Of a stretch of 64,000 bases of DNA, positions 32,712-37,816 are shown piece by piece. Where the stretch lies: assembly GCA_963718615.1 (NCBI GenBank), contig OY970368.1, positions 3,424,001 to 3,488,000 of the forward strand, in the 5' to 3' direction. The position numbers were made by a program, and so were the translations under genes. The notes under the pieces are model-generated. The model did not search any database, was not told the DNA's origin, and worked only from the letters and a program-made list of their open reading frames with translations. This stretch comes from an uncultured cyanobacterium (lineage in GTDB: Bacteria > Cyanobacteriota > Cyanobacteriia > PCC-9006 > JAAUQQ01). How positions within the stretch are numbered: position 1 is the stretch's first letter; every line of letters begins with the position of its first letter.

Positions 32712-33617
32712 GTGTTGACCCGTCTTCAATATCTCATTCGCGAAACCTGGATTGGGTTGCGGCGAGGGGGCTGGATGAATTGGGCTGCGATCAGTACGGT
32801 CACAGTCCTCTTATTTTTGCTGGGGTTAGGGCTGCAAACCACTTGGCAAATCGAACGCCTCGTCAATCAATTTGGCAGTCAGCTCGAAGTCAGCGCCTTT
32901 CTCAAAAGCGGCGTGGAAGCCAGTCGCTTGACCCCCTATGTCCGTCAATTTTCGGGGGTAACAGCCTTGGAAACCATCTCCAAGGAAACCGCCTGGGCCG
33001 ACATGGTCCAGGAGTTGGGGCTCAAGGATGTCCAGGGCGCAACGGAACAGCTCAATGGTAATCCGCTGGTGGATGAGATTCGGGTAAAGGCGCGATCGCC
33101 CGAAGCCCTACCTAAACTGGTCGAACAACTGCGGGACCTCAACGGGGTTGATGAGGTTCAATACCTGCCCGAAGTCCTCCAGCGTTTGCGACAGCTTAAC
33201 CAAGGGCTCAATTGGCTGGGTCTAGGGGTCGTTTCCTTACTCACCCTCACCGCCCTGGCGGTCATCACCACCACCATTCGTCTGATTGTGGTTGCCCGTC
33301 GCCGAGAAATTGAAATTATGCAGCTCGTGGGAGCCACCTCCCTCTGGATCGCGTTGCCGTTTATTTTGCAAGGGCTCCTGTTTGGGCTCTGCGGTGGGGC
33401 GATCGGCTGGGGACTGATCCAGCTTGCCCAACATTTTCTGCTGCAACAGGTCAGCGACCAACCTGAATTTATTCAAACCCTTGTGGGGGGGCTCCAGCTC
33501 GATCCCCAACAGCACTTCCGTTTGCCCTTGATTCTCTTGGGCTTTGGCGGCGGGGTTGGGGTTGTGGGCAGCCTCTTTGCGGTCGGCCAAGTCTCGGCCC
33601 AGCGCCAATCGGCCTGA
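32712..33617 (+). CDS. ftsX: Cell-division ABC permease FtsX
   Basis: RRGGWMNWAAISTV, GNPL, TTIRLIVVARRREIEIMQLVGAT..I..PF; four TM segments. Confidence 0.9.
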   Translation: MLTRLQYLIRETWIGLRRGGWMNWAAISTVTVLLFLLGLGLQTTWQIERLVNQFGSQLEVSAFLKSGVEASRLTPYVRQFSGVTALETISKETAWADMVQELGLKDVQGATEQLNGNPLVDEIRVKARSPEALPKLVEQLRDLNGVDEVQYLPEVLQRLRQLNQGLNWLGLGVVSLLTLTALAVITTTIRLIVVARRREIEIMQLVGATSLWIALPFILQGLLFGLCGGAIGWGLIQLAQHFLLQQVSDQPEFIQTLVGGLQLDPQQHFRLPLILLGFGGGVGVVGSLFAVGQVSAQRQSA

Positions 33618-33678
33618 GCCCTAACACAAATTCCCCTTCCCGATAGAGCCCTTTTCCCAATAGAGCCCTGGTTTATAG

Positions 33679-33974
33679 CGCAACTGCTCCATCGTCGCGT
33701 TGCGTAGAACCATTGAACTTTTGAGCTTAAAATCACGCCCTCATTCTCTCAGCCCTGCGTACGTCCGGAGATCCGACGCAACCTACCCAGAAGGGCTGTT
33801 CCCCCTAGAAATTGAAGTTGCTTAGACACCATTGGCATGACCCCGTTGTAGCAATTCAGACTAGTGAACATCATGACGCTAAATCAACCGGTGTTCGCTC
33901 TGTTTACCGCTTTCCGGCAGAGCAGAGCGGCAGTCGCTGGGGGCTCATCTCAGGGCCCATTGTTTTAGCGTTAT
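33679..33974 (+). ncRNA. Candidate large structured RNA of unknown family
   Basis: Four consecutive base-paired domains with several G.U pairs that work only on the + strand; details in the findings. No family assigned. Confidence 0.6.
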
Positions 33975-33987
33975 TAGGAAACAAAAC

Positions 33988-34224
33988 ATGGGAACACGTG
34001 CAAATCCGGATAATCACCACACCCGTTTCAAAGGTCGGGGTCTTGGAACTCGCCATAAACAAGCGCCTTTGAGCGTTTTGGTTCATCATGAGATGGACCA
34101 GTATGTGCGAGCTAAACCCAGTAAGTCTGACTGGCTGCGGGAGGCCATCTCCGAAAAAATTGAGCGAGAAGGCTGGATCCTTGAAAATGACCACTTGGTG
34201 GAAGTGATGAAACGCTGCGGCTAG
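33988..34224 (+). CDS. Small CopG/ribbon-helix-helix-like protein
   Basis: AGGA RBS; PLSVLVHHEMDQYVRAKPSKSDWLREAISEKIERE has a strand-helix-helix pattern with the SxWLREAI helix; followed by a terminator. Confidence 0.65.
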   Translation: MGTRANPDNHHTRFKGRGLGTRHKQAPLSVLVHHEMDQYVRAKPSKSDWLREAISEKIEREGWILENDHLVEVMKRCG

Positions 34225-34263
34225 GTCGAGTTGCAAGAGACTCTTTCTTCTTTGAAAAGATTC

Positions 34264-34318
34264 AGTCCCTAAACCCCGCTGGGTGATGTACACCGGCAGG
34301 GAGTTTAGGGGCTTTTTT
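34264..34318 (+). terminator. Intrinsic terminator
   Basis: AGTCCCTAAAC...GTTTAGGGGCT long hairpin followed by TTTTT. Confidence 0.7.
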
Positions 34319-34482
34319 CTTGCGTTTCTGACTGAGCAGCAGGTTATAAAAATGGGCATTCTGAAGAAGGTAGTCAGGGAATTGTCATCGATATAGCACT
34401 AACACTGCATTGCTAGGGCCTGCAACAGGGTGCTTGAACCCTAAGGACGGACTAACTCCATTACGTTCCCTCTGCTTCTCCT

Positions 34483-34911
34483 ATGTCTAAACCGACGATT
34501 CTCTGCGTAGATGACGAGTCCATTATTCTGAGTAGTCTCAAGCGTCAGCTCAAGCAAGCGTTTCGAGACCAATATCTTTACGAAAGCGCCGAAAGCGCTG
34601 ACGAAGCCCTAGAAATTATTGAAGAGTTAGAAGAAGAGGGAGCCCACGTTATTGTCATTGTTTCTGACTGGCTGATGCCCGGAATGAAAGGGGATGAGTT
34701 TTTGTCGTTGGTGCATCAGCAGTTTCCCCATGTGCTCAAAATTTTGCTAACGGGTCAGGCGGATGATGCCGCCATTAGCCGCGCCCGCAGTGAGGCCGAA
34801 CTCCACCAATGTCTAGCTAAGCCTTGGGATGCTCAAGAGTTAATTGATTCTATTCAGTCCGGTTTAGCCCACCTAGAAGCAGGCAACCTGCTGCCTATCG
34901 AGCCGGGATAG
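34483..34911 (+). CDS. Single-domain response regulator
   Basis: ILCVDDE, IVSDWLMPGMKGDEFL, LLTGQ, LAKPW. Confidence 0.92.
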   Translation: MSKPTILCVDDESIILSSLKRQLKQAFRDQYLYESAESADEALEIIEELEEEGAHVIVIVSDWLMPGMKGDEFLSLVHQQFPHVLKILLTGQADDAAISRARSEAELHQCLAKPWDAQELIDSIQSGLAHLEAGNLLPIEPG

Positions 34912-34969
34912 GCGATCGCCCACGACAAAGTCCCGTCCACCGTTAAGATTCCTCATCCTGACTCTAGCT

Positions 34970-37816
34970 GTGCTATTGCCCCACGCTCCTGCGCCCATTT
35001 TCAAAGTTGGCATTCTGCATTCCCAAACGGGGTCGATGGCGGTGAGCGAGATGCCGCTGATTGATGCCGCGCTGATGGCGATCGAAGAAATCAATCAGGC
35101 CGGTGGAATTTTGCATCGTCCGATTCATCCGGTGATCGGCAACGGTGCGTCTTCTCCAACGGGATTTACAGCTCAAGCCCGTTATCTTATGCATGAACAG
35201 CGTGTGACTACGCTATTTGGTTGCTGGAGCTCGGATACTCGCAAAGCGCTTCTGCCCCTGTTGGAGGAGGCGAATGGGCTCCTCTGGTATCCCCTACAGC
35301 ATGAAGGTTTGGAGGCCTCGCGCAATATTTTTTATACGGGGTCCTGTCCTAACCAGAAAATTGAACCTGCGGTGGATTGGTTTACTCAACATCGGGGGAG
35401 CCAGTTTTATTTGCTAGGCTCCGATGACGTTTTCCCCCGGACAATTCATAAAATTATTCGCTCTCGGTTGGTTCAACAGGGGGGGCGGGTGGTGGGCGAT
35501 CGCTATCTGCCTGTGGGAACCCTCGATTTTCAAGACATCATCGAGGAGATCCAGCGGAGCAAGCCCGCTGTGGTTTTTAATACCCTCAGCGGCGAGAGCA
35601 ACCTTGCCTTCTATCGACAGTTCTATGAAGCGGGTATCACCGCCGAGAAGTTGCCGATTCTCTCCGTCAATTTTTCGGAAACGGACCTCAATTTTCTGGG
35701 GGCAGCGGCGATCGGTCACTACGCCGTTTGGAACTATTTTCAAAGTTTAGAGACCTCGGCCAATCAAGCCTTTGTTCAGCGGTTCAAGGCTCGGCACGGT
35801 CTGGCACGGGTGACGTCGGATCCGATTGAAACCGCCTACAGCCAGGTGTATCTCTGGAAGGAAGCGGTGGAGGCAGCTCAGTCCTTTGATGTGGATGAAG
35901 TGCGGGTGGCAGCCTACGGGGAAAGCTTTGCTGGGCCAGGGGGAGTCTTAACCCTAGAACCGAACCACCATGCCTGGAAATATTGTCGAATTGGCTGTGT
36001 ACAGCCGGATGGACAGTTCAAAATCGTCTATAACAGCCCGGACCCGATTAAACCGTTGCCCTGGTTAGGGGTTGAAGAAAGCGAATTTAGCGGTGCCGCA
36101 GCGGTCATTGACATGCTGGCAGAGGTCAGCCAAACGGTTCAAAAAAACTGGGTGATTGAGCAAAAATCCAAGATTTTGGAGGAAACGACCCGCCTCCTGG
36201 AGGCCGAAATTACCGAGCGACAGCGGGCGGAGCAGGAGGTGCGGCTGTTGTTATCCATCAGTCAGGTGATTAATCAAGCCCCCAATCTAGAGAGTGCGCT
36301 CAAATGTGCGCTGCAACAGCTTTGTCAGGTCACGGGTTGGCCCTACGGCGAACTGTGGTGGCCCAATGCCGCTGTCACCCAGCTCAAATGCAGCCCCATC
36401 TGGCATTTGGAAGAGAACCGCCTCACACCGGAACAGGGGGGAGCACTCAAGCAATTTCGCTGTTATACCGAACAGACCACCTTTGAAATCGATGAGGGCT
36501 TTTTGGGGCAGGTCTGGCAAACCGGACGAGCCCGCTGGAGTCGTCAATTTGGCCTGTACGGAGCCGTGGGAGTGCCAATTTTGAGCCCTCAGGCGGTGGG
36601 CCTGATGGGGGAGGGGGAGACCGAGGCGATCGCCTCCAGCACCGGCAAGCCCAAAGTCTTGGCGATTCTGGTGTTTTTGCTGCCAGAACTACGGGAGCAA
36701 AGCAAACGTTTGATCAAGCTCATCTCAGCGGTGGCCGCCCAACTGGGAACCGTCGTTCAGCAGAAAAAAGCCGAAGAAGCCCTGCGCCACAAAAACGAGC
36801 AGCTCGCCAAAACCCTACGGCAGCTCAAGGCCACCCAGAACGAACTGGTTTTATCTGAAAAAATGGCAGCCCTAGGTCAGTTAGTGGCGGGCGTGGCCCA
36901 TGAAATCAACACACCGCTGGGCGCGATTTGTTCATCCGTAGAGTACATCAGTGACTTTCTGGCTCAGGACCTAGAGAAACTGCCGGATTTCTTTCACGCC
37001 CTCTCGGATCAACGTCGTCAACTGTTTATTGAACTAATTCAAAAACTACGCCGCCCCGAACCCTTTTTATCCAACCGAGAACGGCGACAGGTGCGTCGCA
37101 AGCTGACGAAGAAATTGGAGGATCAAGGCATTGCGGAGGCCCATGGTTTAGCCGATTTGCTGATTGATTTGGGAATTTATGAGCAACCGGATTTGTTTCT
37201 GCCCATTTTGCAGGAAGAGGCGGATGGCCAAGAGTTTTTGGAGATGATGCAATGTATCTTGGGGCTTTACGGCAGCTCTCGGGATATTGCCCTCGCCGCT
37301 GAACGGGCCTCGAAGGTGGTGTTTGCGCTCAAAACCTACTCCCACTACGATCACACCGGCACCCAAATTGAAGTCAATGTTTTGGATGGACTGGAAGCAG
37401 TGCTGACGCTCTATCAAAATAAGTTCAAAAGCGGGGTAGAGCTAGTGCGTAACTATGGCGATGATTTGCCAATGCTGCTGTGCTATCCCGACGAACTCAC
37501 TCAAGTTTGGACCAATTTAATTCACAATGCGCTGCAGGCGATGAATGGCAAAGGTCGGTTGCTTTTAGAAGTCCGCAATTTGAGGCATGCGATCGAAGTC
37601 TGCGTCACAGATTCGGGCTGTGGGATTCCGGAAGAAGTCCGTCAGCATATTTTCAAACCCTTTTTCACGACTAAACCCCCTGGCGAAGGCAGCGGTTTAG
37701 GGCTCGATATTGTGCGAAAAATCATCGAGAAACATTGTGGGACGATCGCCATTGATTCGATTCCTGGACGCACGACCTTTGCGGTGACGTTGCCCCTTAC
37801 TGCTGAGCAAATTTAA
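34970..37816 (+). CDS. Histidine kinase with N-terminal UrtA/AmiC-like ligand-binding domain and GAF domain
   Basis: KVGILHSQTGSMAVSE..FGCWSS..LLWYPLQHEGLE (UrtA-like), GAF-like WPYGELWWP, H-box VAHEINTPL, NALQAM, GEGSGLGL. Confidence 0.88.
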   Translation: MLLPHAPAPIFKVGILHSQTGSMAVSEMPLIDAALMAIEEINQAGGILHRPIHPVIGNGASSPTGFTAQARYLMHEQRVTTLFGCWSSDTRKALLPLLEEANGLLWYPLQHEGLEASRNIFYTGSCPNQKIEPAVDWFTQHRGSQFYLLGSDDVFPRTIHKIIRSRLVQQGGRVVGDRYLPVGTLDFQDIIEEIQRSKPAVVFNTLSGESNLAFYRQFYEAGITAEKLPILSVNFSETDLNFLGAAAIGHYAVWNYFQSLETSANQAFVQRFKARHGLARVTSDPIETAYSQVYLWKEAVEAAQSFDVDEVRVAAYGESFAGPGGVLTLEPNHHAWKYCRIGCVQPDGQFKIVYNSPDPIKPLPWLGVEESEFSGAAAVIDMLAEVSQTVQKNWVIEQKSKILEETTRLLEAEITERQRAEQEVRLLLSISQVINQAPNLESALKCALQQLCQVTGWPYGELWWPNAAVTQLKCSPIWHLEENRLTPEQGGALKQFRCYTEQTTFEIDEGFLGQVWQTGRARWSRQFGLYGAVGVPILSPQAVGLMGEGETEAIASSTGKPKVLAILVFLLPELREQSKRLIKLISAVAAQLGTVVQQKKAEEALRHKNEQLAKTLRQLKATQNELVLSEKMAALGQLVAGVAHEINTPLGAICSSVEYISDFLAQDLEKLPDFFHALSDQRRQLFIELIQKLRRPEPFLSNRERRQVRRKLTKKLEDQGIAEAHGLADLLIDLGIYEQPDLFLPILQEEADGQEFLEMMQCILGLYGSSRDIALAAERASKVVFALKTYSHYDHTGTQIEVNVLDGLEAVLTLYQNKFKSGVELVRNYGDDLPMLLCYPDELTQVWTNLIHNALQAMNGKGRLLLEVRNLRHAIEVCVTDSGCGIPEEVRQHIFKPFFTTKPPGEGSGLGLDIVRKIIEKHCGTIAIDSIPGRTTFAVTLPLTAEQI

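Follow-up and report, generated by a model that had tools for sequence, protein, structure and literature searches.

A conserved, family-restricted candidate 5' leader upstream of a small CopG-like gene in cyanobacteria

The window, a stretch of 64,000 nucleotides (nt) from an uncultured cyanobacterium (contig OY970368.1), carries a conserved non-coding segment between ftsX and a small gene for a CopG-like protein of 78 amino acids (aa). With a probability of roughly 0.5, the mRNA of this gene (33988-34224) has a structured 5' leader restricted to one lineage, whose conserved part is positions 33781-33987 and which would be transcribed together with the gene. Such a leader would have two parts. 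The first is an 88-nt conserved segment, predicted to be single-stranded and of fixed length. The second is a three-way junction, domain D, whose closing helix P1 would run from an invariant CAT-N-ATG to 1 nt before the Shine-Dalgarno sequence. An earlier note, made from the sequence alone, had described the intergenic region as a multi-domain structured RNA of ~300 nt with four helix sets, A to D, and had named a complex cis-regulatory leader as its other option. In our analysis the proposed 300-nt RNA shrinks to one well-supported domain of ~100 nt and a conserved unstructured block. The features of the element and of the gene that follows it are:

33781-33868, + strand: conserved 88-nt block; gapless alignment in 7/7 orthologs, non-coding, no stable fold
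33869-33875, + strand: CAT-N-ATG, a palindrome of 7 base pairs (bp) at the boundary of block and D, invariant in 7/7 orthologs; its ATG begins the 5' strand of P1
33873-33887, + strand: 5' strands of P1 (33873-33883) and P1b (33885-33887) of D; inverted repeat on which minimum-energy and centroid folds agree, also in the RNAalifold consensus of two genera
33888-33893, + strand: 5' strand of P2 of D; from the fold and the RNAalifold consensus (window's genus and nearest genus)
33894-33934, + strand: variable hairpin of D, inserted in P2; from folding of the window, L002 and L003
33935-33940, + strand: 3' strand of P2 of D; from the fold and the RNAalifold consensus
33941-33966, + strand: P3 hairpin of D (33941-33946/33953-33958), then a T-rich tract; from a terminator scan
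33960-33974, + strand: 3' strands of P1b and P1 of D, ending 1 nt before the Shine-Dalgarno sequence; from the inverted repeat, the folds and the RNAalifold consensus
33976-33979, + strand: Shine-Dalgarno sequence AGGA, 8 nt 5' of the ATG, in invariant columns
33988-34224, + strand: 78-aa CopG-like ribbon-helix-helix gene whose product has a basic N-terminal tail; from conservation, codon periodicity and a profile match

Conservation and distribution of the element

Orthologous loci were found in one cyanobacterial family and fall into three genera, the first represented by the window, the second by L002 and L003, and the third by L004 to L007. A DNA search of 41 genomes gave matches in seven, the window's own included, all of them in this family (6 of its 7 other genomes); these matches begin just 0-58 nt 5' of the ATG of the small gene. 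The element is present in a single copy in its own genome. The six relatives are metagenome-assembled genomes, and a scan of 185,579 species genomes recovered the identical six. A 17-position motif of the conserved core occurred once in each of the seven family genomes that hold the locus. Among 393 other cyanobacterial genomes it occurred in one, within an open reading frame (ORF) of 331 aa; a control pattern written backwards also gave one match, and the single match outside the family is due to chance. Scanning of metagenomes with the protein alignment gave 121 pattern stretches and no relatives among them, and a scan with the DNA motif gave two matches to one unrelated sequence that has neither ftsX nor the small gene. 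In a collection of 5.8 billion proteins, we found four clusters of the small protein. As far as sampled, the element is confined to one family. The impression that related sequence occurs in other cyanobacteria holds within the family and, among the 393 other genomes sampled, not beyond it.

The seven regions between ftsX and the small gene share 47 invariant columns, compared with a mean of 2.6 and a maximum of 5 in 20 mononucleotide shuffles. The next intergenic region of the same seven loci has 4 (shuffles: mean 1.55, maximum 3). The non-coding DNA between ftsX and the small gene appears from these counts to be under purifying selection. Its invariant positions cluster in 33785-33891 and 33961-33981. 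Contigs of a close relative, from run X3, showed 4 differences over the 264 nt of 33753-34016, compared with 25 differences and 18 gap letters over 33552-33773. This contrast is only a hint, because the two contigs may come from different strains.

The 88-nt block is non-coding, because stops occur in every frame in some ortholog and its conservation shows no codon periodicity (invariant positions by codon phase, 10/34, 8/33 and 8/33). The small gene, used as control, gave 51/70, 59/70 and 11/70. The block is also unstructured. The z-scores of its + strand fold in six orthologs were -0.83, +0.05, +0.70, -0.44, +1.59 and +1.63, and those of the - strand were similar (L006, a near copy of L005, was left out of the z-score sets for both the block and D). 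RNAalifold gave a marginal result (-5.97 versus -2.25 +/- 1.8 for column shuffles, 10/200 of which reached it).

Conservation extends into D. To compare D with putatively neutral positions, we used the third codon positions of the adjacent gene. Identity in D and at codon position 3, respectively, was 98.5 versus 68.6% for L004/L005, 78.1 versus 60.0% for L004/L007, 74.6 versus 57.1% for L002/L003 and 68.0 versus 52.9% for the window/L002. By this measure, D is more conserved than the synonymous sites of the gene.

Fold of domain D and of its surroundings

D is closed by a 15-nt inverted repeat (33873-33887/33960-33974, 87% complementary), one of just two in 33600-34000. P1 and the short P1b close the junction, P2 bears the long hairpin and P3 is a short GC hairpin. 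Folded alone (33869-33979), D gave -49.4 kcal/mol and a z-score of -5.56, a stability that 0/200 shuffles attained. The three-way junction is both the minimum-energy and the centroid fold in the window, L002 and L003, and the minimum-energy fold in L007 is the same; in L004 to L006 it lies 0.6-1.1 kcal/mol above a competing local fold. In the alignment of the window with L002 and L003, 91.4% of the cells pair, compared with 27-52% when the partners are slid. The relative from run X3 carries 33892 T>C, which turns a U.G pair of P2 into C-G, and two changes at the tip of the variable hairpin.

The fold also distinguishes the strands. The + strand z-scores of D in the six orthologs were -5.56, -3.46, -3.12, -2.78, -2.47 and -1.09, and those of the - strand, in the same order, -3.42, -1.99, -0.09, -3.67, -3.74 and -1.43. 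The first three values of each series belong to the window, L002 and L003, which make up the first two genera; there the + strand folds better than the - strand, a preference that the third genus does not show. For all three, the fold energy on the + strand lies far below that of shuffles. G.U pairs make up 7/40, 7/42 and 9/45 of the pairs in the respective minimum-energy folds. The argument that G.U pairs in D indicate the strand, put forward in the earlier note, is borne out for the window; L002 and L003 show the same preference for the + strand, and the third genus does not.

The hairpin inserted in P2 varies in length, measuring 41 nt in the window, 49 nt in L002 and 63 nt in L003, and is absent in the third genus. 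Its sequences differ, yet each folds into one extended hairpin, with + strand z-scores of -3.17, -2.82 and -4.11 (1, 2 and 0 of 200 shuffles were as good). The - strand scores were -3.45, -1.38 and -0.87, so that in L002 and L003 the hairpin forms on the + strand only.

Upstream of D, the case is different. The four helix sets are all present where they had been described: A at 33679-33684/33699-33704, B at 33750-33756/33792-33798 with GCGT/ACGC, C, and D. The intergenic region as a whole (33618-33990) gave a z-score of -2.91 on the + strand (0/100 shuffles) and -0.95 on the - strand (13/100), and a putative full leader (33717-33990) gave -2.04 (7/200). Helices A to C (33679-33872) gave -0.32, with 72/200 shuffles folding as well or better. 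Since D alone scores -5.56 and A to C are at chance, the signal is local to D, and the claim that almost the whole intergenic segment folds does not hold beyond chance. The shuffling test that had been suggested as a check thus singles out D as exceptional and leaves A to C at the level of random sequence. Two further features lie in this part of the region:

33679-33704, + strand: hairpin A, with 6-bp arms and a 14-nt loop; present, and used in the minimum-energy fold
33705-33710, + strand: TAGAAC, a -10-like hexamer and candidate promoter element; TA[GA]A[ATC][CT] in 7/7 orthologs

Hairpin A has four changes in the relative from run X3 (33686, 33688, 33689 and 33691), every one in the loop. 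Reading the alignments by eye, we found that A does not align as a hairpin in other genera and that neither B nor C is kept there. The idea of an anti-Shine-Dalgarno element was rejected, since the pyrimidine tract pairs well with the Shine-Dalgarno sequence in L005 and L006 only and is therefore not conserved. TAGAAC is the sole -10-like hexamer kept in position, and a leader starting from it would be ~270 nt long. Counting against this candidate, the window and L004 have C instead of T as its final base.

No known RNA family accounts for the element. We searched with the 4227 models of Rfam 15, taking a score at or above the gathering threshold of a family as membership. There were no matches at gathering in the 64-kb window. 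At E<=10, 33550-34350 gave three unrelated matches, all far under gathering, the best being a miRNA model on the hairpin of the terminator downstream of the small gene (the microRNA precursor model mir-7918, 24.9 bits versus a gathering threshold of 80, a spurious match). At E<=1, the six homologous loci gave two unrelated miRNA matches elsewhere and nothing relevant. The earlier judgement that this is no familiar RNA family is therefore borne out for Rfam 15. A full-text literature search showed nothing on this element among the papers listed.

The option of a complex cis-regulatory leader fits these results. Conservation of the region far exceeds that of the neighbouring intergenic region, a conserved gene with a terminator of its own adjoins it, and in the window's genus and the nearest one its last ~100 nt fold stably on the + strand. 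D would act in cis on the mRNA and keep the ribosome-binding site in an open, A-rich stretch next to the single-stranded conserved block. Together, D and the block could be a platform for a trans-acting factor that sets translation or mRNA stability, and the nucleic-acid-binding product of the gene itself would be the obvious, if putative, candidate for this factor. In the window's genus and the nearest one, P3 and its U-tract could double as a leader terminator (attenuator). The mRNA would end at the terminator of the small gene (34260-34318).

Weighing the structured leader against its alternatives

Several results weigh against a structured leader. Covariation in the window, L002 and L003 was non-significant: both partners change in one of 27 pairs, and the observed measures were reached in 103-327 of 500 shuffles. 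Seven sequences in three genera are too few for covariation power, and at this number 'covarying' helices of 4-5 bp turn up freely within the coding region. A covariance model built from the window, L002 and L003 recovered only its three training sequences. When run with filters off, it gave D of the third genus 6.5 bits (E 3.5), which is noise. In that genus P1 pairs in a shifted register, both P2 and P3 are short, perfect palindromes, and the fold of the - strand is no worse than that of the + strand (z-scores of -3.67 and -3.74 versus -2.78 and -2.47). D of the third genus is equally compatible with inverted repeats that act at the DNA level. The strands that join P1, P2 and P3 in the third genus are unlike those of the window, L002 and L003, both in length and in sequence. 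The predicted probability that the G's of the Shine-Dalgarno sequence are unpaired was 0.5-0.77 in the window, L002 and L003, 0.32 and 0.87 in L004, and 0.0-0.09 in L005 to L007; accessibility thus ranges from open to fully paired among the orthologs, with no common switching logic visible. The most conserved part, the block, has no stable fold in the six orthologs tested. Finally, a consensus promoter scan of 33300-34600 found no sites.

Some structural candidates were set aside. Two long-range helices, 33783-33787/33847-33851 and 33786-33797 with the 3' strand of P1 (the latter from RNAalifold), were no better than the chance helices of the coding region; we did not rely on them, because short covarying helices abound there. 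A pairing between a GACCCCG segment and the GRGLG codons does not extend to the third genus (alignment read by eye). The very low RNAalifold energy of a structure-guided alignment of D was not used as evidence, because its helices had been aligned by hand and the argument would be circular.

The strongest alternative, a real possibility if an unlikely one, is that conservation acts mainly on the DNA. In that case the block and CAT-N-ATG would be the promoter/operator of the small gene, with sites, for example, for the ribbon-helix-helix protein itself or for an activator, and transcription would start just after 33875; D would merely be hairpins of a short 5' untranslated region, and the complementarity of P1 would be incidental. 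The block is unstructured on both strands in 6/6 orthologs tested, and its fixed length and scattered invariant positions are as in phased protein-binding sites. CAT-N-ATG is palindromic and could be read as a weak -10 box, since CAT-N-AT has the A at position 2 and the T at position 6 of a -10 hexamer and is preceded, at exactly 17 bp, by an invariant T.GT. In the third genus, P2 and P3 are each a perfect inverted repeat of 5 bp, with the same arms in L004 and L007 and different loops. The product of the gene is CopG-like, and palindromes occur upstream of 9/22 of its distant homologs (shuffles: mean 2.6, maximum 8). However, the promoter scan was empty, the supposed -10 box begins with C and the -35 is weak, which makes a poor sigma-70 site, and this type of palindrome occurs in 0/7 family loci. 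Selection on the DNA would also leave unexplained why a 15-nt inverted repeat closes D, why the window, L002 and L003 have many G.U pairs and favour the + strand, and why a hairpin that varies in length is kept up.

CopG, Arc and MetJ are autoregulated ribbon-helix-helix repressors with operator/promoter regions. The locus resembles theirs in having a small, putative ribbon-helix-helix gene preceded by a conserved block of fixed length and by palindromic elements (CAT-N-ATG and the P2/P3 arms of the third genus). It differs in that the stems of D contain G.U pairs and favour one strand in two genera, that the arms of P1 lie 72 nt apart and those of P2 41-63 nt apart, and that the palindrome type of the distant homologs is missing at the family loci.

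If the segment is instead a structured mRNA leader, the closest known systems are riboswitches, protein-binding leaders and autogenous operators. D resembles structured 5' leaders in its three-way junction, whose closing helix abuts the Shine-Dalgarno sequence, in its conservation above synonymous sites and in its peripheral hairpin of variable length, a feature common in Rfam leaders. It differs from them in having no Rfam match and in being known from seven genomes only. In riboswitches, the junction nucleotides are the most conserved part; the junction nucleotides of D vary between genera, and the conserved nucleotides lie outside D, in the block. Nor was a conserved occlusion of the Shine-Dalgarno sequence or a terminator switch seen in D. 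Autogenous translational operators are exemplified by the leaders of ribosomal proteins and by the operator of threonyl-tRNA synthetase. As in these, the gene encodes a small basic nucleic-acid-binding protein and has in front of it a conserved structured leader reaching as far as the ribosome-binding site of the gene. The difference is that the product here looks like a DNA-binding protein of the CopG type. This fold is not known to bind RNA, although no literature search was aimed at the question.

It is doubtful that D and the block together represent a cis-regulatory RNA of a new class, with the CopG-like protein encoded downstream, or an unknown ligand, as its binding partner. Such an RNA, to be taken with the same reserve, would control a regulator whose gene has ftsX on one side and a two-component system on the other, in a cyanobacterial family that has barely been sampled. 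A structured leader as we propose it would be an undescribed one with no Rfam counterpart, controlling a small CopG-like regulator, and one more lineage-specific regulatory RNA. Binding of the small protein to its own leader would, if real, be an unusual instance of RNA as the target of a ribbon-helix-helix protein. The reach of seven genomes is narrow and the mechanism putative, which makes the wider impact modest.

A second alternative, which we consider improbable, is a leader attenuator or terminator in two genera. Here transcripts arriving from ftsX or from a leader promoter would be terminated by P3 and its T-tract, and whether any continue into the small gene would depend on alternative pairings offered by D and the upstream C-rich block. 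The terminator scan flagged P3 and its T-rich tail at one and the same position in the window, L002 and L003, and the window has no other terminator-like site between ftsX and the small gene. Pairing is conceivable between C-runs in the block and the G-run where P2 meets P3. On the other hand, the third genus has no T-tract after P3 (no site at D was found in L004), terminator-like sites are in each region as frequent as in shuffles, the stem is short (5-6 bp) and its T-tract interrupted, and no alternative fold rivals D energetically (-49 kcal/mol). Compared with intrinsic terminators and attenuators in general, P3 is alike in being a GC-rich hairpin of 5-6 bp followed by a T-rich tract in 3/7 orthologs. 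It differs in being absent from the third genus and embedded in a larger junction, with no antiterminator identified.

That domains A to D make up an independent non-coding RNA of ~300 nt, as the earlier note had proposed, is decidedly improbable. The whole intergenic region does fold with a z-score of -2.91 on the + strand, is non-coding and matches no Rfam family, so that such an RNA would be new. However, A to C fold at chance, B and C are not kept in other genera, the 88-nt block has no stable fold and covariation is non-significant. No promoter/terminator pair bounds the region: the consensus scan gave no promoter-like sites, and the sole terminator-like site is P3, inside D and 10 nt before the Shine-Dalgarno sequence. 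The sequence, present once in the genome, runs directly into that Shine-Dalgarno sequence and a conserved gene.

There is very little chance that the block and D encode an upstream ORF, either in + frame 1 (with a recurring W-x-[DS]-P-x-V ... A-H) or from the invariant ATG at 33873, or an N-terminal extension of the small protein: + frame 1 is open through the block in 5/7 orthologs with some common residues, and in L004 the frame of the small gene is open for 204 aa, in frame across D and the block, but variation is not in excess at third positions (with the small gene as control), + frame 1 has stops in the window and two in L007, one of them within the shared motif, the frame relative to the small gene differs between orthologs (with D lengths of 78-148 nt), and the ORF from 33873 has 31 aa in the window, 7 aa in L007 and no common sequence in the third genus. 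In the orthologs other than L004, the frame upstream of the small gene is out of frame or has stops. An ORF on the minus strand (33749-33874) was rejected, having a stop in L002 and L003.

Gene context and the small CopG-like protein

The genome that carries the window is a single contig of 6.10 Mb. The intergenic region under study measures 370 nt and has ftsX on its 5' side and the 78-aa ORF on its 3' side. The flanking features are:

32712-33617, + strand: ftsX, the upstream gene; Pfam FtsX_ECD 6.7e-14 and FtsX 1.6e-10; syntenic in 7/7 family genomes with the locus
34260-34318, + strand: intrinsic terminator of the small gene; a long GC-rich hairpin, then a T-run

Reading the sequences by eye, we found a hairpin and T-run 3' of the small gene in 6/7 loci (the window, L002, L003, L004, L005 and L007); the same reading picked out no terminator-like hairpin in L006. 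Over 32712-37816 of the window, and in the same order in 7/7 family loci, ftsX is followed by the small CopG-like gene, a 142-aa receiver-only (CheY-like) response regulator and a 948-aa sensor kinase. The conserved order points to a functional connection of the small regulator with the two-component pair.

The 78-aa protein is 77-83% identical in the six orthologs. The window's copy had no Pfam or NCBIfam match. A six-frame search found weaker relatives of the protein in 37 of 401 cyanobacterial genomes, some with several (five matches in G255). A profile was built from 22 members, namely 6/7 orthologs and those 16/22 distant copies with an ATG start and a length of 55-90 aa. This 22-member profile matched the CopG-family regulators 7etr_A (E 4.7e-4) and 6iya_A (E 5.7e-4) of the PDB. 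Pfam RHH_1 matched two of the 22 members only, at E>=0.12 and under the cut-off. In an AlphaFold model of the protein, an extended segment and two helices (residues 27-60) are arranged as in ribbon-helix-helix proteins, with an additional C-terminal hairpin. The predicted local distance difference test (pLDDT) score was 77 overall and ~93 over residues 30-60. A Foldseek search with the small protein gave no match at E<=0.001.

Within the small gene, TTCAAAGG (34027-34034) and CCTTTGAG (34066-34073) show an 8-bp complementarity with standard pairs in at least 6/7 orthologs at each position. Both arms are changed in L003, and the complementarity may merely reflect conserved codons.

Upstream of the 22 distant homologs examined, two motifs of the block were absent (0/22). 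A strict palindrome finder gave nothing informative. The 5' flanks of the distant homologs often carry imperfect 16-bp palindromes, two or three per gene, of the type CCC-NN-GTATAC-NN-GGG (L016, L018, L019, L021, L022 and L030). It was with the loose pattern CC-N2-3-[GA]TA[CT]A[CT] that the 9/22 distant loci and 0/7 family loci given above were counted. The palindromes at the distant homologs are probably operators of an autoregulated ribbon-helix-helix family.

At the other end of the intergenic region, directly 3' of the ftsX stop, a 16-nt direct repeat, TTCCC[GA]ATAGAGCCCT, occurs in two copies 17 nt apart (33637-33669). The relative from run X3 has several small deletions in this stretch. 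GAGCCC/AGCCCT words recur at 33615, 33647, 33663 and 33751, and the complementary G-rich words are found at 33792-33798 and in P3.

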